The notes under the pieces are model-generated. The model ran no database searches and was not told where the DNA came from. It was given only the letters and a program-made list of their open reading frames with translations. This document shows, in pieces, positions 7,211 through 56,435 of a stretch of 64,000 bases of DNA. The position numbers and the translations under genes were made by a program. The DNA is from an uncultured Candidatus Saccharibacteria bacterium. GTDB lineage: Bacteria; Patescibacteriota; Doudnabacteria; UBA920. The stretch lies in contig CAZBAS010000001.1 in the NCBI GenBank assembly GCA_964490395.1, forward strand, positions 275,815 to 339,814, written 5' to 3'. The number at the start of each line of letters is the position of its first letter. Within the stretch, counting starts at the first letter, position 1.

Positions 7211-7936
7211 ATGTCTAAAAACACCATACTATGGATAGTGATTGGAGTGTTGGTTATTGCTGGAATTGCTTTTGCGGTTACGCGAAAGTCGGGATCGGAT
7301 GACGAAAATGTCGCACAGAGTCAGACTACGCAAGATACTGCGAGTGCTACAAACACTGCTGCCACAGACCAAACCCCGACACCGTCGGCTACTCCTAACT
7401 GTACTAGGGCATACGATCCTAACAAATTTGCAAATATGAAAGTTGATTATCAGGATAAAGTTGCTTCATTGGTAGTGCGCAACTTTGGTACTATCAAGAT
7501 AGCGCTGAACGATACTGCTGCACCTAAGACCGTGGAGAATTTTGTAAAACTCTCTGAGAGTGGGTTCTACGACTGTCTTACCTTCCACCGCATAGCAAAA
7601 GACTTTGTGATTCAGGGGGGAGACCCAAGCGGCAATGGTACTGGCGGGCCTGGATACACCATTCCTGCAGAAATTAAATTACTTCACACAAAAGGTGCAG
7701 TAGCCATGGCTCGTACCGGTGATGAAGTAAACCCGAAACGTGATTCGTCTGGTAGTCAGTTTTACATTGCGCTCCAGCCACTCCCTATGCTCGATGGAGG
7801 ATATACCGTGTTTGGACAAGTTACGGAAGGCATGGACATAGTAGAAAAGATTGGTGGCGTACCCATACTCGGCACCAGCGATGGACCGCCTAAAGAGCAA
7901 GTAATAATTGAAAAAGTAACAATAACTAATAAGTAA
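7211..7936 (+). CDS. ppiB: Cyclophilin-type peptidyl-prolyl cis-trans isomerase with N-terminal membrane anchor
   Basis: FHRIAKDFVIQGGDP...GTGGPGY cyclophilin core; N-terminal TM plus Thr/Ala-rich linker. Confidence 0.85.
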   Translation: MSKNTILWIVIGVLVIAGIAFAVTRKSGSDDENVAQSQTTQDTASATNTAATDQTPTPSATPNCTRAYDPNKFANMKVDYQDKVASLVVRNFGTIKIALNDTAAPKTVENFVKLSESGFYDCLTFHRIAKDFVIQGGDPSGNGTGGPGYTIPAEIKLLHTKGAVAMARTGDEVNPKRDSSGSQFYIALQPLPMLDGGYTVFGQVTEGMDIVEKIGGVPILGTSDGPPKEQVIIEKVTITNK

Positions 7937-20182: not shown

Positions 20183-20530
20183 ATGTCTATGAACAAACTT
20201 GAACTTACTGAAATTTTAGCCGCTCGGCTTTCCATTACTCATAGCGAAGCAGAGCGAATGCTTAACACACTTATTAACATAGTGTACGAGCAGCTTCGTA
20301 GTGGTGAAAAAGTAAATATTTCTGGCTTTGGTCAGTTTAGTGTGTCGCATCGTGCTCCTCGTATTGGAGTGAATCCTCGTCAGCCAACCCAGAAAATCCA
20401 AATTCCAGAACTAAACACCCCTAAGTTTAAAGCTGGCGAAGCATTTAAAGCAGCAGTTAAGCTGCGTAAATCAGCAGCTAGCCCTGCGCCAGACATGACT
20501 GCAGCACCAACTGCTCCATCATCTTTCTAG
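20183..20530 (+). CDS. hup: HU-family DNA-binding protein with Ala/Pro-rich C-terminal tail
   Basis: HU fold signature (GFGQFSV..R..R.GVNPRQ). Confidence 0.85.
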   Translation: MSMNKLELTEILAARLSITHSEAERMLNTLINIVYEQLRSGEKVNISGFGQFSVSHRAPRIGVNPRQPTQKIQIPELNTPKFKAGEAFKAAVKLRKSAASPAPDMTAAPTAPSSF

Positions 20531-20676
20531 GTATATATAAACTTAATTTATCTAAGCAAATCAAAAACTCTCCTGAAGGAGAGTTTTTGATTTTGACCGC
20601 CGCCGCAAGGCTATGGCGCGCAGACTTCGCATCAAATATCTGGTCAACTTTATTCAGGCATCCCTCAATCTTCTTA

Positions 20677-20714
20677 TGGCGTAAGCCAGACGAAGCTTCA
20701 GCGAAGTCTGGTGC
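20677..20714. repeat. 37/38-nt motif GGCGTAAGCCAGACGAAGC-N5-GCGAAGTCTGGTGC, direct-repeat copy of the sequence abutting tRNA-Arg (45011-45047), ending in a tRNA-3'-end-like GCACCA (complement)
   Basis: Near-identical to 45011-45047; followed on minus strand by GGTATCCCGC resembling tRNA-Gly acceptor 3' strand. Confidence 0.7.
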
Positions 20715-20780
20715 GGGATACCTCGGTAGAAGTTCGAAACGAACTTTACGGGGCACAGCGGGAAAGTTCTCCGTTCCCTT

Positions 20781-20818
20781 ACCAAAGAAAACACCTGACT
20801 TAGATCAGGTGTTTTCTT
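20781..20818 (-). terminator. 15-bp perfect hairpin (AAAGAAAACACCTGA/TCAGGTGTTTTCTTT) immediately 3' of tRNA-Gly
   Basis: Perfect inverted repeat. Confidence 0.6.
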
Positions 20819-20892
20819 TGGAGCGGGATACGGGAATCGAACCCGTCCCACCAGCTTGGAAGGCTAGCGTACTACCACTATACGAATCCCGC
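20819..20892 (-). tRNA. tRNA-Gly (anticodon UCC), CCA encoded
   Basis: Manual cloverleaf: acceptor GCGGGAT/ATCCCGC, anticodon loop CTTCCAA, T-loop TTCGATT, discriminator U. Confidence 0.85.
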
Positions 20893-21026
20893 TAAAATGC
20901 AGTATATAAACAGAACTTAACCATTATATCCAATATCTGAGGAGTAGGGAAGGGGTAACTGGCGTAAATTAGCAAAGTTTTGTATACTGTGTAGGCTCAA
21001 TTGTATTTCGTCTTTTTACCTCTGAG

Positions 21027-21100
21027 CGGGGTGTAGTATACCGGTAGTACGTCTGCTTTGGGAGCAGATAGACAGGGTTCGATTCCCTGCACCCCGACCA
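21027..21100 (+). tRNA. tRNA-Pro (anticodon UGG), CCA encoded
   Basis: Manual cloverleaf: acceptor CGGGGTG/CACCCCG, anticodon loop TTTGGGA, T-loop TTCGATT; flanked by 9-bp inverted repeat CTTTTTACC/GGTAAAAAG. Confidence 0.85.
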
Positions 21101-21142
21101 TAGGTAAAAAGTGCGATAGTGACCAGATACGCCATCCATAGT

Positions 21143-21709
21143 ATGAGCACAAAGCACACCCTTGCAGTGACCGCAATAATTGAATACCAGGGGAGAATCT
21201 TTTTCATTCAAAGGCTAACTAAGGATGAAAATTTCTCTGGAAAATGGGTTTTCCCCGGTGGGAAAGTTGAAGCCGGTGAAGACGCCATTCAAGCATTGCT
21301 CAGAGAGATACGAGAAGAGACCAATATAGAATTGCATCCAGAAATACAATTACTTTCTTCCTACATGTTTTATAGAGAAGAAGATGCGTCCTCAACGGTA
21401 GGGGAGGTGTTTCTCCTGCGTGCAGTAAGTGATTTGTACACTTTAGATACTGAAAGCTACGAGCACGCAGAGTGGATATTGCCAGAGGACGTATACAATT
21501 TCGATACTATTTATGGCATGGAAGTCCATGTTCGCAATGCAATCATTGCGCTGCGCACCGGTAAACCCCTGCAGCAGGCATATATGTCGGTTACGAACTA
21601 TCAGAAAAACAACTGCTCAATGAGCGCAGAGTATTTGAAGGCGTTACAAGCGGCTCCAGATGTATACGCGTTTCTCGCGGAGCACGGGGGGCACGAACCT
21701 CATATATAG
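21143..21709 (+). CDS. NUDIX hydrolase
   Basis: Nudix box GGKVEAGEDAIQALLREIREETNIE. Confidence 0.8.
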   Translation: MSTKHTLAVTAIIEYQGRIFFIQRLTKDENFSGKWVFPGGKVEAGEDAIQALLREIREETNIELHPEIQLLSSYMFYREEDASSTVGEVFLLRAVSDLYTLDTESYEHAEWILPEDVYNFDTIYGMEVHVRNAIIALRTGKPLQQAYMSVTNYQKNNCSMSAEYLKALQAAPDVYAFLAEHGGHEPHI

Positions 21710-21778
21710 AGTGCTAAAACTGCACAAATACAAGATATTTTACACCATAAATTTCAAAATATAGCAAGGACTATTTCT

Positions 21779-21807
21779 TTGACATATAAAGCGAAACATC
21801 TTATAAT
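21779..21807 (+). promoter_or_regulatory. Consensus sigma70 promoter TTGACA-17-TATAAT
   Basis: Perfect -35 and -10 hexamers with 17-nt spacer. Confidence 0.6.
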
Positions 21808-21866
21808 TTATATACGTTAAGGTAATTCCGCGAAACGAAACACATACCGTGTACACACCCTACTTG

Positions 21867-21939
21867 AAAGCCAAAATCTAATTCTTGCTAAGTTTCTCTT
21901 AAATATAGAGAAACTTGGGATTAGATTTTGGCTTTTATT
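21867..21939 (+). terminator. Nested hairpin (16-bp outer stem AAAGCCAAAATCTAAT/ATTAGATTTTGGCTTT, inner AAGTTTCTC/GAGAAACTT) followed by TTTTATT
   Basis: Perfect inverted repeats + U-run; about 55 nt downstream of the consensus promoter. Confidence 0.55.
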
Positions 21940-22467
21940 GTGTGACAAACAATAAAAGCGCAAAAGATTTTATGTGTAACATATAGCACATACGAATCGT
22001 CTAGCTTTTTGATAGGAACGAACAGATACACAACGATCAAGATTTTTATGTAATTCAGCGACGAAATACTTTTGCTGAATTATTACCCAGTCGCAGCAGT
22101 CCGTTCAGATGGGTCCTATCAAACCTTCTTCTTAGCTATAAGCCTCTTGGCAGGCCGTCTACTAAAAGGTGCCTCTAAACGAGCATCGGTTAGCTTGGGC
22201 AGATTAGCGTCTGTGCCGAAACTGACAAATACTCAAGGCTCCGTGGTCGAACTTTTAGTATCAACGAAATAAAGTCTTCCAAGGGTGTTTAATAGTCGCG
22301 TATATGCAAGCGGTATATTTAGGAACTCTAGAGCCTACGTATAAGCGCGCAGGTGCGTGTATAAATTAATTATTTTCCAAGTATATTGATTGAATCAATT
22401 GAACAATCAATCCCTCCACTGCGGTATTGCACTGCGGTGAGCAGAATTTGGAAAATGGAGTAAGTAA

Positions 22468-25400
22468 ATGACTTCTAGTTTCTCAAAGAAACTCGTTGCA
22501 GCAGTATCTGTTGCTTCTATGTTTGCTTTTGCTGCCCCAGCTTTGGCTGCGGCTCACGCAGAAGGTACAAACGTTAGCAAGCCAGATGGTTCTGTATGTA
22601 TGGTTCGCATGGGCCAGCTACAGTGCTACACCTCTGCTGGCGCTTTCCTTTCCTATGGTTTCAACTCTTGGAGCCAGGTAGTAGCAGCCAACAGCGATGA
22701 CCTCGCTTTGCCAATGGGTTCCTTCATTGCTCCTCAAGACGGTAGCGTTATCTTCTCGGATCGCGGTGCTGACAAGGGGACTGGTTACATTCTCAGCGGT
22801 GGCATGAAATATGGCTTCCCAACTGAAGCAGTTTTCAAAGCACAGGGCTATAGCTACTCCACAGCAATGTGGGCAGATATCTCTTGGGTAAGCATGGGCG
22901 GCACAATCAACGCCGGCGATGCAGCTCATCTTCCTGGTACTTTGGTAAACAACGGCGGTACTGTACAGCTTGTTGGTAACACTGGTCTTATGGGTATCCC
23001 TGACCTTGCTACCTTCAACAGCTGGGGTTACAGCTTTGCTAAAGTCGTTCCTGCTAACGCAAACGATAAAGCAAAGACTCAAACTGGTGTTATGCCAACT
23101 CGCGTAGCGGGTCAGCTCTCCCCAACCAGCACTGTAGTAGTTACTCCAACCGGATCTGTATCTGCGTCACTTTCTTCTGATAATCCAGCTACTGGTACTC
23201 TAGTTGCTGGTCAGGCTTTGGCAGATCTCGCACATATCAACCTCACTGGCAGCGGCACTGTTACCGCTTTAACCTTTGAACGTATTGGCGTTTCTGCAAA
23301 CACAACTCCTTCAAACGTATATTTGTTTGAAGGATCAACTCGTTTGACCGATTCTGCTTCCTTTGGTTCTGACAACAAAGTAACTTTTGCTGGTCTGAAC
23401 TGGAACGTAAGCGGTACTCGCACAATCGCAGTTAAGTCTGATATTGCTTCTAGTACATCAGGCCAAACGGTTGGTGTTAAGCTGACTTCTATCACTTCTG
23501 GTAGCACAGCTTCTACTGTATCCGTTTCTGGTAACATCCACAGCATTGCTACTGCAACTTTGGCTGGCGTTGCTTTGTCTTCTGCAACTGGTTCTGGTAA
23601 CACAGACCCAGGCAAAGACATCAACGTATGGCAGGGTACAGTAACTGTGTCTACTCGCGATGTAACCTTGAACCGCATGGCTCTTCGCCAGGTAGGTTCT
23701 ATCATTCCATCTGATATCAACAACTTCCGCTTGTTCGTTGACGGTGTGCAGGTCGCACAGGCCCAAAACCTCGATACGAATGGCTACGTAACCTTCACCC
23801 CGAACACCGTTATCAAGACTGGTGCTCGCGCCGTAAAGGTTATGGCCGATGTTGTCGGTGGTTCTGGTCGCACCGTTCAGTTGTCTCTCCGTGGCGCATA
23901 TGATTTCGCTACAACTGACAGCTCTTACGGCGCCATGATTGCCGCAACCGGATCCTTCCCATTTGGTCCTTCTTCCTTCACTGTGAACGCTGGTGCATTG
24001 ACTGTTGCTAAGGCAACTGACTCTCCATCTGCGAACGTAGTGGCTGGTGCTTCCGACGTTTCCGTTGGTAAGTGGACCTTCACTGCATACGGTGAACCGA
24101 TTAAAGTAGAAACCTTGACTGTTGGTGTTAACACCAATGGTACCGATGCAAACAACAGCTTCCGCAATGTTCGCATTATGGTTGATGGTTCCCAGGTTGG
24201 TAGCACAACCAGCGTCGCAGCTGTAGACAGCTATGCCTCTGGTACTTCCTTTACCACCAACTTCACTGTTACTCCTGGTACGCCTCGCGTAGTAGAAGTA
24301 CGCTCTGATATGGTAGACGATACTGCAACTGACTTGATTGCGAATGGCACCACCACTTCTGCACAATTTGCATTGGTAGCTGGTTCCTCTAACGCAACTC
24401 CTCAGGTTTCCTTGAGCATGATCAATGTTCCAACTGCATCTGTTGCGGCTAACAGCCTCACCATTGCAAGCGGTAGCGTTTCCCTTGCCAAGACCTCTAC
24501 TTACCCAGATCAAAGCGTTGTTACCCCACAGACTGCTTACAAGATTGGTTCTTTCACTTTGAGCGGCAACTCTTCTGAAGCTGTCAATGTGAACACTTTC
24601 ACTTTGAGCATGACTGTAACTGACAACACTGGTGCCCCTGCTGCAACTGTTGCTGATGTTACTGACGTATACCTCAAGTATGGTTCCAATCAAACCTCTG
24701 TAAAGCCGACTATTGCTGCTTCTGGCAACACCTGGTCCCCAAGCTTTACTTTGGCCAAGAACGAAACCATGCAGGTAGACGTGTACGGTACTCTCGGCTC
24801 TGATATTCAGGCAACCGACACTGTACAAGCAAGCTTGCTTGTTTCTGGTACCGCTGCACAGTCTGGTTCGGCTGTAAACACGAACAGCAATGCTGTTCTT
24901 GCTGGTCAGACCATCACTGCTGGCTCTGGCTCTATAACCGCTACTAAAGATGCTTCTTCTCCAGACGCTCGTTTGGTTGATGACTCTGGTACGGTAACCA
25001 CTGCAGCCTTCAAATTTGCTGCAGTCACCGATAGCTACTCCTTGACCGACTTCACCTTTACCTTGGGTAATGCGTCTGCCGTATCTAGCGTAGCTCTGAA
25101 GGATGGTTCTACCACTTTGGCAACAAAGCCTGGTTCTACCTCTGTTACCTTCAATGGTCTGAATGTTCCAGTTGCTTCTAACACCAATAAAATACTCACT
25201 GTAGAACTTACCTTGAGCCCAGTTGGTGTTGGTGCTGGTACAACTGACTCTTCTTTACTCACTACCTTGACTGACTTTACTGCCCGCAACTCTGGTGGTA
25301 CTTCAGCTGCAGGTACTGAGTCAAACCCGGCTGGTAACAACATGTACATCTACAAGGCTGTACCAACCGTGTCTCAGATTGCCTTGCCAAACTCTGACTT

Positions 25401-25947
25401 GGCTGCTGGTACAAACGTTACCATCGCGAAGTTCAGCGTAAACACCAACGGCACTGGTACAATTGCTTGGAAGCAAATCATGCTGGAAATCAGCAAGACT
25501 GCTACCCCAACTTTGTCCAGCATCGCTTTGTACAATGCTGATAGCAACACGCAGATTACTGCAGCTACTGCATTCCAGAACGGTTCTGCTGGTGTGGCAA
25601 CTACTTGTGTAGGCGACAACACCTCTTGTGAACTCCTTATCACTGTTGGCACAAACGCTGACGATGATACCGTAGAAACTGTAAGCGGCGCTCGCAACTA
25701 CGAAGTACGTGCAACAATCGGCGGCAGCATTGCTGCTACCGACAGCGTATCTGTGAAGTTGGATAACAACATCACTTCTCACGCTGCTTCTGCAGCATTC
25801 CAGACCAACAAGAACTCTGCTGCTGCAAACAACACATCATTCACCTGGAGCGATGAGTCTGCTTCGGCAACCAACGACACTGGTGTATCTACCTGGCAAA
25901 AGGATTACTTGGTCAAGAACCTGCCTATTAGCTGGAACATGAACTAA
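22468..25947 (+). CDS. Giant secreted Thr/Ser/Ala/Gly/Val-rich cell-surface protein (S-layer or adhesin candidate) with N-terminal signal peptide
   Basis: Signal peptide MTSSFSKKLVAAVSVASMFAFAAPALAAAHA; 1159 aa low-complexity beta-rich composition; SD GGAG before ATG; long upstream leader. Confidence 0.6.
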   Translation: MTSSFSKKLVAAVSVASMFAFAAPALAAAHAEGTNVSKPDGSVCMVRMGQLQCYTSAGAFLSYGFNSWSQVVAANSDDLALPMGSFIAPQDGSVIFSDRGADKGTGYILSGGMKYGFPTEAVFKAQGYSYSTAMWADISWVSMGGTINAGDAAHLPGTLVNNGGTVQLVGNTGLMGIPDLATFNSWGYSFAKVVPANANDKAKTQTGVMPTRVAGQLSPTSTVVVTPTGSVSASLSSDNPATGTLVAGQALADLAHINLTGSGTVTALTFERIGVSANTTPSNVYLFEGSTRLTDSASFGSDNKVTFAGLNWNVSGTRTIAVKSDIASSTSGQTVGVKLTSITSGSTASTVSVSGNIHSIATATLAGVALSSATGSGNTDPGKDINVWQGTVTVSTRDVTLNRMALRQVGSIIPSDINNFRLFVDGVQVAQAQNLDTNGYVTFTPNTVIKTGARAVKVMADVVGGSGRTVQLSLRGAYDFATTDSSYGAMIAATGSFPFGPSSFTVNAGALTVAKATDSPSANVVAGASDVSVGKWTFTAYGEPIKVETLTVGVNTNGTDANNSFRNVRIMVDGSQVGSTTSVAAVDSYASGTSFTTNFTVTPGTPRVVEVRSDMVDDTATDLIANGTTTSAQFALVAGSSNATPQVSLSMINVPTASVAANSLTIASGSVSLAKTSTYPDQSVVTPQTAYKIGSFTLSGNSSEAVNVNTFTLSMTVTDNTGAPAATVADVTDVYLKYGSNQTSVKPTIAASGNTWSPSFTLAKNETMQVDVYGTLGSDIQATDTVQASLLVSGTAAQSGSAVNTNSNAVLAGQTITAGSGSITATKDASSPDARLVDDSGTVTTAAFKFAAVTDSYSLTDFTFTLGNASAVSSVALKDGSTTLATKPGSTSVTFNGLNVPVASNTNKILTVELTLSPVGVGAGTTDSSLLTTLTDFTARNSGGTSAAGTESNPAGNNMYIYKAVPTVSQIALPNSDLAAGTNVTIAKFSVNTNGTGTIAWKQIMLEISKTATPTLSSIALYNADSNTQITAATAFQNGSAGVATTCVGDNTSCELLITVGTNADDDTVETVSGARNYEVRATIGGSIAATDSVSVKLDNNITSHAASAAFQTNKNSAAANNTSFTWSDESASATNDTGVSTWQKDYLVKNLPISWNMN

Positions 25948-54173: not shown

Positions 54174-54339
54174 AGGTGTATTTTACCACGATGTGTATAC
54201 AGCTTTGTCATTCTCGCGCATGCGGGAATCCAGCTCGCCATACAGCGAGCAATAAGATTATTGACCTCGGGATCGATGCAGGTTGCTAATTGGGTGGGGA
54301 CGATGCGAAGCTGGCAATGCAATATGGTATTATCTACAT

Positions 54340-54972
54340 ATGAGTGAACTGCCAAAAATAATGCAGCATGTGTACATACGACTGAATACACCTGATAAGA
54401 TTCAGACTTTTATAAATACACTTCCGGCGAATTTTGAACTAAAGGGTGAAACCTATATGTCGCCGCTTCGGACACTGAAGGAACAAAAAGCTCATTGTAT
54501 GGAGGGCGCGCTTTTAGCAGCGTCCATATTAAAATACCATGGACACAAGCCGCTCATTATGGACTTGCGAGCACAAAAGCCAGACCAGGACCATGTGGTA
54601 ACATTATTTAAAAATAATGGATACTGGGGTGCTATAAGTAAAACAAATCATGCAGTGCTTAGATATCGCGAGCCAATCTATAAAACATTGCGCGAGCTGG
54701 CACTGTCCTATTTCCACGAATACTTTGACAATGCTTCCGGTAGTAAAAATTTACGAGAGTATTCAGCTGCTTTTAATTTAGAAAAGTTTAACCGTATACA
54801 GTGGGAGACAGCAGACGTAGATTTGTGGGACATTGTTGATGCGCTCGATAATTCCAAGCATTATTTTCTTTTAAATAAAAAACAAGAAAAAATCTTACGC
54901 AAAGCCGAACCCATAGAAATAAAAGCCGGCGAGCTGACTGAGTGGTCCAAATCCGGAAAAAAGCTTTTCTAA
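54340..54972 (+). CDS. Hypothetical protein, possible transglutaminase-like Cys/His/Asp fold
   Basis: Spaced C...H...D residues (AHCMEGA...DHVV...); weak. Confidence 0.3.
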   Translation: MSELPKIMQHVYIRLNTPDKIQTFINTLPANFELKGETYMSPLRTLKEQKAHCMEGALLAASILKYHGHKPLIMDLRAQKPDQDHVVTLFKNNGYWGAISKTNHAVLRYREPIYKTLRELALSYFHEYFDNASGSKNLREYSAAFNLEKFNRIQWETADVDLWDIVDALDNSKHYFLLNKKQEKILRKAEPIEIKAGELTEWSKSGKKLF

Positions 54973-54978
54973 TTTCCA

Positions 54979-55081
54979 CTGTTCGCAATTTAAGCGGCCG
55001 CTTAAATTGCGAACAGGTGTCGTTTAAATATTTGAGTGCTACAAGGGCATCTTCTGCAGGAGCTGCAGAAGATGCCCTTGT
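54979..55081. terminator. Two consecutive perfect palindromic hairpins (38 bp with GCGGCCGC centre; 41 bp with CTGCAGGAGCTGCAG centre)
   Basis: Perfect inverted repeats read directly. Confidence 0.7.
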
Positions 55082-55097
55082 GTGATAGGCTATATAT

Positions 55098-56435
55098 ATG
55101 CAGTATCTACTCGTAATAACGTTATTGGTTGCCCCTACTTACGCCATTCGTTTTGAGTTGTTTGGTTTACCGACGAACGTCCTTATGGTGTGGGTGTTCG
55201 TTGCTTGGTTTGTATTTGCTCTATGGCTTTTCGCTCGTCATAAATTTGCTAATCTTTTTCACTGGCTTCGTTCTGAGCTTGTTACTTGGCATGGTATACT
55301 TGCCGCTGTATTTTTTCTTGTAGGGGTAATTTCTCTTTTTGTTGGTGGATTCTCAGAGGAAAAGCTCGGCCAATTTCTCGTCCTCTTCTTCCAGCCGGTC
55401 GGCACTTTTATACTATTGCGCTATTTGTCTTCTATTGAAAATTGGAAATCCGCCTCTTCGGCGGACCAGCCAAAGAGGCTGGTTGGAAATGTGCTGACAC
55501 ACACAGCGTTGCTATTTGTATCAGTTGCTGGTCTCTATGCCATAGTCCAATATTTTACCCTCATTGGTGTGCCTGTCGCGTGGTGGGGTAACAGCGAAGA
55601 GCCAAAACGAGCAGTGGCGTTTTTCATGCATCCAAATTTTTATGCGCTGTTCATCACGCCGCTTTTGGCGTTCTTGCTACCCATAGTTAGTGGCCAGTGG
55701 CTGAAACAGGCAAGACAGGTGCACTCCGGTCCCTCTCCTCGCGAGCAGAGGTTACGTGAGATCACAGAAAAGCATTGTGATGCACCAGGGGTTTCTAAGA
55801 CCTCCTCCAACTCCTCATCACGAGGAGGAGGACAGGGCCTACTCACTACTTCCGCCTTGCTTCTCGGTGCAGTTGGCCTTTTGCTGTCTTTGTCCCGTGG
55901 CGGCTGGCTGGGCCTTGCTGCTGCGATTGGCGCCTATATTCTCATTACTGGAAATCGCACACTATTAAAACGCGCGGCCGCGCTTTTTGCTATTTCACTC
56001 ATTGTGGTACTCGCGGTGCCGAACTTTCGTTATAGGATACTGCTGCCATTCCGCGGGGAAAAATCGACCGTCGCACGGTTCTCTCTGTGGAATACCGGAT
56101 GGAAAATGGTTACAGATAGTCCGGTATTGGGTAAGGGTCTCTTGGGGTTTAGTAATAACTGGTATGCGTACAATACCGATTCAGGCCTACAACATTACCC
56201 AGCGCCGCACAATATTGTTTTAAATTTTTGGATAGACACAGGACTCCTTGGTCTCATATCCTTTTTTTGCCTGCTCGTGCTCGCCGCAGTTCGGAGTCTT
56301 AAAGACCGTGATAACGTGTACAAGCTTGGCCTCCTGCTTGCCTGCATTGCGCTGGTAGTCCATGGTCTCGTTGACATTCCCTATTTCAAAAATGACCTAG
56401 CATTACTGTTTTGGATGTTGTATAGTTTTATTTAA
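55098..56435 (+). CDS. O-antigen ligase/polymerase family membrane protein carrying two in-frame GC-rich palindromic insertions
   Basis: Wzy_C-like LSLSRGGWLGLAAAIG region; polytopic. Confidence 0.65.
   Translation: MQYLLVITLLVAPTYAIRFELFGLPTNVLMVWVFVAWFVFALWLFARHKFANLFHWLRSELVTWHGILAAVFFLVGVISLFVGGFSEEKLGQFLVLFFQPVGTFILLRYLSSIENWKSASSADQPKRLVGNVLTHTALLFVSVAGLYAIVQYFTLIGVPVAWWGNSEEPKRAVAFFMHPNFYALFITPLLAFLLPIVSGQWLKQARQVHSGPSPREQRLREITEKHCDAPGVSKTSSNSSSRGGGQGLLTTSALLLGAVGLLLSLSRGGWLGLAAAIGAYILITGNRTLLKRAAALFAISLIVVLAVPNFRYRILLPFRGEKSTVARFSLWNTGWKMVTDSPVLGKGLLGFSNNWYAYNTDSGLQHYPAPHNIVLNFWIDTGLLGLISFFCLLVLAAVRSLKDRDNVYKLGLLLACIALVVHGLVDIPYFKNDLALLFWMLYSFI
55450..55482. repeat. 33-bp double-hairpin element inside the ligase CDS, identical 17-mer to intergenic 13090; flanked by direct repeat (A/G)TTGGAAAT
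   Basis: CCGCCTCTTCGGCGGAC + CCAGCCAAAGAGGCTGG; TTGGAAAT at 55442-55449 and 55483-55490; 33+9=42 bp keeps the frame. Confidence 0.85.
55790..55850. repeat. Second polypyrimidine/polypurine palindrome (CCTCCTCC...GGAGGAGG) inside the ligase CDS
   Basis: Inverted repeat; encodes low-complexity SSNSSSRGGGQG segment. Confidence 0.55.

Follow-up and report, generated by a model that had tools for sequence, protein, structure and literature searches.

In Escherichia coli, micF is a small RNA gene with its own promoter and intrinsic terminator that lies beside ompC, the gene of an envelope protein. The PR'-tR' unit of phage lambda yields a 194-nt "6S" transcript unless the Q protein permits read-through. 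Surface-layer (S-layer) genes (e.g., Lactobacillus slpA and Brevibacillus cwp) have tandem promoters and long structured 5' leaders. Almost nothing is known about gene regulation and non-coding RNA in the mostly uncultured Candidate Phyla Radiation (CPR, or Patescibacteria). This report concerns a 64,000-nt stretch of DNA from an uncultured bacterium of this group (GenBank GCA_964490395.1, contig CAZBAS010000001.1, positions 275,815 to 339,814), here called the window, and within it the intergenic front end of a very large secreted surface-protein gene, where a consensus promoter (P1) is followed by a long hairpin, a second promoter (P2), and a leader.

Two further described systems involve sigma factors of the extracytoplasmic function (ECF) type. 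The Streptomyces ECF sigma factor BldN, with its anti-sigma factor RsbN, drives the chaplin and rodlin genes of the surface sheath (PMC6101532). Promoters of the ECF16 group follow the pattern (T/C)GTAAC-N16/17-CGAA, and their transcripts have been mapped to begin 6 bp past the -10 element (PMC8315932, PMC3420878). A literature search on S-layer regulation in CPR bacteria and on the protein domain DUF5667 returned nothing relevant. The locus described here is a delimited and deeply conserved front end composed of a consensus promoter, a covarying small RNA that is putatively ended by a terminator, an ECF-type promoter, and a structured leader of 200-700 nt; across Parcubacteria, an ECF sigma gene paired with a DUF5667 gene is tied to the surface coat. 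Transcription is predicted to start near both 21814 and 22008, and one transcript 3' end is expected near 21938. With somewhat better than even confidence, the P1 unit is read as an independent small RNA gene ended by a terminator that would also shield the ECF-controlled promoter against sigma-70 transcription.

The P1 unit and its hairpin

The short unit and the gene that it precedes comprise the following features:

21779-21807, + strand: P1, sigma-70 promoter; TTGACA (21779-21784), 17-nt spacer, TATAAT (21802-21807); predicted start about 21814
21814-21864, + strand: 5' part of the predicted short RNA, about 51 nt, weakly structured
21865-21937, + strand: long terminator-type hairpin of 73 nt and 31 bp, from folding and a covariance model
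21933-21939, + strand: U-run UUUUAUU; the short RNA is predicted to end at about 21936-21940
21929-21957, + strand: second small hairpin, GCTTTTATTGT...ACAATAAAAGC, an inverted repeat overlapping the U-run
22468-25947, + strand: secreted surface-protein gene of 1159 codons, to which the module of P1, hairpin, P2, and leader is linked

A NUDIX-family gene (21119-21709) and the surface-protein gene are separated by 758 bp free of genes (21710-22467), in line with the 750 bp given in an earlier note on this DNA. The 1159-aa surface protein has a signal peptide, and each of its 475 homologues comes from a CPR/Patescibacteria metagenome bin (e.g., Doudnabacteria); it has no match among Pfam, NCBIfam, or PDB sequences. 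The label "S-layer gene," which rests on the size and signal peptide of the protein and on how many homologues it has, is plausible but unproven, and the protein is probably the main surface protein of these bacteria.

P1 matches the sigma-70 consensus at 12 of 12 positions. It is the sole perfect TTGACA-17-TATAAT site on either strand of the 64 kb, which bears out the earlier description of a promoter as strong as any in the window. Sites with at most one mismatch number four, against 0.56 expected. From the hairpin to the ATG of the surface gene, the + strand has no further sigma-70-like site of 9/12 or better.

The hairpin begins about 50 nt past the predicted start. Its core arms, AAAGCCAAAATCTAAT (21867-21882) and ATTAGATTTTGGCTTT (21920-21935), are 100% complementary, and folding lengthens this outer stem to 21 pairs (21865-21885 with 21917-21937). 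A 4-nt bulge (21886-21889) separates the outer stem from an inner stem of 10 bp (21890-21899 with 21907-21916), which is closed by the 7-nt loop UAAAUAU (21900-21906). The 16-bp stem and U-run that had been claimed are thus present, within a structure of 31 bp. The isolated hairpin has a folding energy of -37.3 kcal/mol and a GCC/GGC clamp at the stem base, and the A-tract at 21867-21869 is the partner of the U-run. For the 132-nt transcript, the folding energy is -48.4 kcal/mol (z = -8.6); none of 200 shuffled sequences is as stable. The hairpin sequence occurs once in the window. The second small hairpin is absent from the relatives compared and appears to be specific to the window.

The element therefore has the features by which intrinsic terminators are recognized, a stable, G+C-clamped stem with a U-run directly 3' of it on the transcribed strand. 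It also has those of a small RNA gene, namely a predicted promoter and terminator of its own, an intergenic position, and no conserved open reading frame (ORF). The short RNA of the window contains no small ORF; ATG codons near +10 in some relatives encode mutually unrelated peptides. An Rfam 15 scan of positions 20500-23500 (E <= 10) returned only tRNAs and sub-threshold hits to microRNA precursors and unrelated small RNAs. The same scan of two related loci, L084 and L005 (E <= 1), returned nothing at the gathering threshold and only sub-threshold noise from long hairpins.

Comparison with relatives rests on 98 related loci, labeled L001, L022, and so on, that were drawn from genome, metagenome, and assembly collections, with 775 kb of DNA searched. 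Of 34 related loci, 31 have a P1-type site (11-12/12) 380-950 nt 5' of the orthologous ATG, and it is a single site in 27 of the 31 loci that have the gene start and enough upstream DNA. The hexamers of these sites are constant and the spacer sequences are variable. About 28 homologous CPR/Patescibacteria loci, with surface proteins 42-90% identical, share the consensus promoter, hairpin, and U-run ahead of the gene. Hairpins of the relatives have 24-33 pairs and span 62-83 nt at -20 to -37 kcal/mol; an A-tract flanks them, and a U-run comes after them in all loci examined. In the 23 loci where the scan selected a hairpin, it begins 37-93 nt past the predicted start and ends at +108 to +169.

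Conservation within the unit is uneven. Between the window and its closest relatives, L001 and L002, the P1 segment is 86% identical. The hairpin segment reaches 55-59% identity to these relatives, and conservation is poor, at 52-61%, in the 5' part of the short RNA. The hairpin sequences of L001 and L002, whose surface proteins are about 90% identical to that of the window, are unrelated to the window's hairpin, and their stems are equally long.

The 5' part carries one recurrent motif in other loci. TTATCCACA, which is the DnaA-box consensus, lies at +21 to +29 of the P1 transcript, 28 nt past the -10 hexamer. Eight of 28 loci (L003, L005, L006, L008, L021, L024, L084, and L085) have a perfect copy, against a background of 0.4%, and 12 of 28 have a copy with at most one mismatch, against 1.3%. 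At this position the motif is missing from the window and its clade.

Covariation supports the hairpin as a transcribed structure. Eleven distant hairpins, once aligned, yield a consensus of 28 pairs in which 90.6% of cells are paired, and 16 of the 28 pairs have double-sided changes; none of 500 shuffles matches these values, and sliding the 3' partners by 1-3 columns lowers pairing to 36-61%. A covariance model trained on these 11 loci (R1), none of which belongs to the window's clade, has a single hit in the window, at 21858-21946 on the + strand (37.9 bits, E = 6e-6). The model also recovers the hairpins of L001, L002, L092, L093, and others, and across the 775 kb no ordinary gene-end terminator matches it at E < 0.01. 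When 20 loci are aligned to R1, 91% of pairs are canonical, and most lower-stem positions show 2-5 pair types. The model-fitted alignment is biased toward structure; an independent MAFFT alignment agrees with it.

Five basal A-U pairs and the G+C clamp are nearly invariant in the 20-locus alignment. That the A-tract and U-tract pairs remain A-U, without covariation, fits selection for termination. An apical GCUU-loop-AAGC stem occurs in about 14 of the 20 loci. There are 62 G.U pairs against 12 A.C pairs, and R1 scores on the + strand are always above those on the - strand; together these indicate an RNA structure on the + strand. The covariation search that the earlier note had proposed thus comes out in favor of the hairpin, and on this comparative evidence the element is very probably a terminator, and it bears the signature of U-tract selection. 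The proposed unit of about 125 nt likewise gains support, at the level of sequence, from the conservation across CPR of its hexamers, covarying stem, A-tract, and U-tract.

These data bear directly on a reading in which the hairpin is the terminator of the NUDIX gene, or an inverted repeat at the DNA level (a protein site or the remnant of a mobile element), and the promoter match is incidental. The hairpin is near-symmetrical, with A- and U-tracts on both sides, and transcripts of the NUDIX gene would end there too, given the lack of a terminator from 21709 to the hairpin. However, a consensus promoter always separates the upstream gene from the hairpin even though the upstream genes differ, and the upstream gene of L001 has a terminator of its own. 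The large excess of G.U over A.C pairs and the constant advantage of the + strand point to RNA rather than to DNA symmetry, and the hairpin, as a single-copy sequence in the window, belongs to no repeat family. This reading is very improbable and is largely refuted by the comparative data.

The module travels with the surface gene. Its order (P1, hairpin, P2, leader) is fixed across loci, and the neighbor on its upstream side varies among a NUDIX gene, an HD-domain gene, and a tRNA. Directly 5' of P1 lies a NUDIX hydrolase gene in the window (21119-21709) and the gene of an HD-domain protein in L001 (4410-5054); since the surface proteins of these two loci are 90% identical, the different neighbors indicate gene turnover at the upstream border of the module. 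A tRNA gene lies immediately upstream of P1 in L092, L015, L010, and L097.

The ECF-type promoter P2 and the structured leader

Between the terminator and the surface gene, the following features are recognized:

21975-22002, + strand: P2, ECF-sigma-type promoter; TGTAAC (21975-21980), 17-nt spacer, CGTCT (21998-22002); predicted start about 22008-22010
22009-22467, + strand: structured 5' leader of about 460 nt, conserved and covarying, without an Rfam match
22245-22254, + strand: leader motif GGTCGAACTT, from an 18-locus alignment
22326-22333, + strand: invariant loop CUCUAGAG of a leader hairpin with its stem at about 22310-22349
22365-22378, + strand: leader motif AATTAATTATTTTC, from the 18-locus alignment
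22385-22411, + strand: leader hairpin ATTGATTG...CAATCAAT, near-invariant even at 42-50% protein identity
22457-22460, + strand: Shine-Dalgarno sequence GGAG

P2 begins 35 nt past the U-run in the window. When 18 leaders are aligned from hairpin to ATG, TGTAAC and CGTC(T) are invariant and lie 20-60 nt after the terminator, separated by a spacer that is fixed in length and unconserved in sequence. The motif TGTAAC-N16/17-CGTC is found in 27 of 28 loci, with a 16-nt spacer in 24 and a 17-nt spacer in three. Over the 775 kb it has 43 copies, 39 of them on the strand of the gene, and 30 of the 43 are inside leaders, 160-278 nt downstream of P1. The remaining copies include those 20-30 nt before ECF sigma genes in L059 and L078, and the motif also precedes the gene that follows an ECF sigma gene in L029, L038, L053, L055, and L066. 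The conserved blocks, the fixed but unconserved spacer, the copies before sigma genes, and the published ECF consensus together indicate that P2 is a promoter of the ECF type; we infer the identity of its sigma factor from motifs and gene linkage.

The surface-gene homologue is directly preceded by an ECF sigma gene on the same strand in 31 more distant Parcubacteria loci. These include L022, L059, L078, L053, L028, and about 26 others, in which the sigma gene lies about 200-2300 nt into the locus. In L008, a relative of the P1/P2 type, an ECF sigma gene lies 2 kb upstream. The occurrence of the motif before the sigma gene itself, together with the linkage of that gene to the surface gene, is a pattern of autoregulation. 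The sigma genes checked carry Sigma70_r2 and r4_2 domains, and the two that were compared with NCBIfam exceed the sigma70-ECF cut-off. Their best NCBIfam model is the BldN family, at 133.9 bits against a cut-off of 206, so that membership is not established. The gene after the ECF sigma gene carries DUF5667 in all three loci checked by Pfam, and is a candidate anti-sigma factor; the corresponding gene of L053 gave no DUF5667 hit.

Other observations concern the ECF-linked loci. Many of their surface-protein homologues have the N-terminal region of about 230 residues replaced by a PG_binding_1 domain. Arrays of 4-8 repeats of GGACA, TAGGACA, or TGTGGACA(A) are present within 150 nt upstream of ECF sigma genes in L030, L036, L066, L038, L043, and L053; the arrays look like clusters of binding sites, and TGTGGACAA is a variant of the DnaA box. 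In the window, a candidate ECF sigma gene at 7415 was a weak hit and is actually a cyclophilin gene.

The leader downstream of P2 is itself a conserved RNA element. Over 18 aligned loci, its invariant motifs are GGUCGA, the hairpin with the CUCUAGAG loop, AAUUAAU, AUUGAUUG...CAAUCAAU, and the Shine-Dalgarno sequence. The 8-bp stem enclosing CUCUAGAG shows covariation at each pair, and a profile hidden Markov model (nhmmer) of the proximal 340 nt finds matches in 27 sources. Between the window and its closest relatives, the proximal leader is 70% identical and the coding sequence 76%. Conservation of the leader and covariation in its stem imply that it is transcribed and acts as RNA. The hairpin of the short RNA and the leader of the surface gene would represent two new RNA families, both without an Rfam match.

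In the window, the predicted 5' end of the P2 transcript (22008-22026) pairs with 22105-22123 (19-nt arms, 79% complementary), which buries the 5' end of the mRNA. This terminal stem was considered as a general stabilizer of the mRNA and set aside, as it occurs in the window and some relatives and not in all. The contigs of L098 and L099, from two sequencing runs, begin at the identical base, equivalent to position 421 of L097, inside the leader. This start lies 110 nt past P2; it was rejected as a transcript end, the likely cause being a break of the assembly where the segment is variable or repeated.

The earlier note had offered, as its alternative, that P1 drives the surface gene through a 650-nt structured leader. 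A structured and conserved leader does exist, but it has an ECF-type promoter of its own, which the earlier note had missed. The position of P2 between the terminator and the gene means that read-through from P1 is not needed for expression of the surface gene.

The alternative survives in another form, in which P1 is a tandem promoter of the surface gene, the hairpin is an attenuator that gates it through factor- or condition-dependent read-through, the 125-nt RNA is a by-product, and P2 adds an ECF input; the gating would be of the kind that Q exerts on lambda PR'-tR'. P1, the terminator, and the gene keep their strand, order, and spacing in about 28 loci regardless of the upstream gene, and the body of the RNA drifts while its structure is retained, both as expected of an attenuator. 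Possible regulator elements are the DnaA-box consensus at its fixed position (8-12 of 28 loci) and the apical GCUU...AAGC stem (about 14 of 20), and a search of the locus found no target in trans. However, the invariant P2 motif stands between terminator and gene in 27 of 28 loci, where it makes read-through dispensable, and the conserved A-tract/U-tract extension and long perfect stems look suited to complete termination. Folds and duplex searches revealed no mutually exclusive antiterminator pairing, and none that is conserved; no antiterminator gene is known at the locus. The second hairpin (21929-21957) was examined as an antiterminator and rejected, as it is downstream of the terminator and not conserved. 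No Rfam riboswitch matches the region upstream of the terminator, where the 5' part is about 50 nt long and unconserved. Gating by attenuation is the main rival of the small-RNA reading, though it is rated well below it.

Weighing the small-RNA reading

In the favored reading, the independent small RNA, the housekeeping RNA polymerase would start at P1, near 21814, transcribe about 125 nt, and stop at an intrinsic terminator composed of the 31-bp hairpin, its A-tract/U-tract extension, and the U-run. The product would be a small RNA whose 3' two-thirds form a long, nearly blunt hairpin. The surface gene would be transcribed mainly from its own P2, with its own leader of about 460 nt, and not from P1; P1, the terminator, and P2 with its leader would be inherited jointly as the regulatory front end of the surface gene. 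Selection appears to keep strong initiation, the stem, and efficient termination rather than sequence, which suggests that the terminator bars sigma-70 transcription from the ECF-controlled leader. An abundant and stable hairpin RNA might act by its structure, or through a protein that recognizes the apical stem-loop, rather than by seed pairing. The transcript ends, the efficiency of termination, and any function of the RNA are predictions from sequence.

Several points weigh against this reading. Strict linkage across deep divergence is equally expected of a cis-acting attenuator. Identity is only 52-61% over the 5' part and the hairpin, in genomes with 76% identity in the coding sequence. 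It is difficult to see why a maximal promoter should run into a maximal terminator if neither the RNA itself nor regulated read-through mattered. The search for a conserved seed or pairing target, which covered the locus only, found none, and the longest complement between short RNA and leader is 7.1 nt for cognate and 7.4 nt for non-cognate pairs. No ECF sigma gene, the presumed source of the factor for P2, was found in the 64-kb window.

The pairing results bear most heavily on a further reading, in which the transcript is a classical trans-acting small RNA whose 5' part or apical loop pairs with distant mRNAs or with the surface-gene leader, and which is encoded beside a gene of the pathway under its control, in the way of micF and ompC. 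A promoter and terminator of its own, an intergenic location, the lack of a conserved ORF, and membership in a conserved family would all fit such a gene. Yet no seed is shared across clades, the 5' part differs even among close relatives (52-61% identity), cognate RNA-leader pairing is no better than non-cognate, and the U-tail is paired to the A-tract rather than free. Duplex folds of the short RNA with the leader give long pairings whose positions are inconsistent among loci. The complement of TTATCCACA does not recur in leaders or at the 5' end of the gene. A matching pair in the same leader block, ACACCCU/AGGGUGU in the window and AAAACCCU/AGGGUUUU in L001, was treated as chance. A base-pairing RNA of this kind is unlikely.

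A different role for the unit is conceivable, as a polymerase feeder for the adjacent ECF promoter, and is rated slightly lower still. P1 would capture polymerase, sigma would be shed over about 120 nt, and the terminator would release the RNA 35-60 bp before P2, where the DNA-bound core enzyme would be taken up by the ECF sigma factor and re-initiate. Sliding of RNA polymerase and re-initiation after termination have been observed in single-molecule experiments, and to our knowledge no natural locus is built around post-termination re-initiation. If true, this arrangement would explain the conserved strength of promoter and terminator and the short distance to P2 despite a drifting RNA sequence, as well as the fixed tandem order and the output, at the level of a coat protein, of a promoter served by a minor sigma factor. 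Should the short unit either control read-through or feed the ECF promoter, it would represent a new wiring of two sigma factors to one gene.

Other window features and likeness to known systems

Some inverted repeats and RNA genes of the window lie outside the module. Upstream of the NUDIX gene, a tRNA-Gly(UCC) gene on the - strand (20819-20892) is divergent to a tRNA-Pro(UGG) gene on the + strand (21027-21100); the former adjoins, at its 3' end, a 24-nt inverted repeat (20775-20828), and the latter is enclosed by a 25-nt repeat (21012-21111). Farther away, a 125-nt gap between two ORFs (54283-54972 and 55098-56435) holds two perfect palindromes, neither followed by a U-run. The first (54979-55016) is 38 bp long and loopless and contains GCGGCCGC; the second (55041-55081) is a hairpin whose 19-bp arms enclose a 3-nt loop.

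Compared with described systems, the P1 unit resembles small RNA genes of the micF type in being short, non-coding, and intergenic and in having a sigma-70 promoter, a predicted Rho-independent terminator, and a conserved surface-protein neighborhood. In contrast to the divergent micF, it is in tandem with its neighbor, on the same strand and immediately upstream of the neighbor's promoter. It also differs from such genes in that no conserved seed or target was found at the locus and no Rfam family covers it, and its hairpin of 31 bp is far longer than the usual terminator of a small RNA.

The lambda PR'-tR' unit offers a parallel of a different kind. Both loci place a strong constitutive promoter and, within 100-200 nt, a terminator that is efficient in lambda and predicted to be so here upstream of long and highly expressed genes; a short, abundant RNA is the default product in lambda and the expected one in the window. 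The downstream genes of lambda have no other promoter, whereas an ECF-type promoter follows the terminator in the window; moreover, the context here is cellular rather than that of a phage, and no Q-like gene or Q-binding element was identified.

P2 shares the GTAAC -35 element and the 16/17-nt spacer of ECF16-type promoters and departs from them in its -10 element, which is CGTC rather than CGAA. As in the BldN system, an ECF sigma factor is linked to a surface coat protein, a link that on the CPR side comes from genes and motifs; the partner of the CPR sigma factor carries DUF5667, unlike RsbN.

Like slpA and cwp, the locus has two tandem promoters and a long structured untranslated leader before the gene of a very large secreted surface protein. 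Unlike those S-layer genes, it has a strong terminator between its two promoters, the second of which is of the ECF type, and its leader motifs (GGUCGA, the CUCUAGAG loop, and AUUGAUUG...CAAUCAAU) are specific to CPR bacteria.

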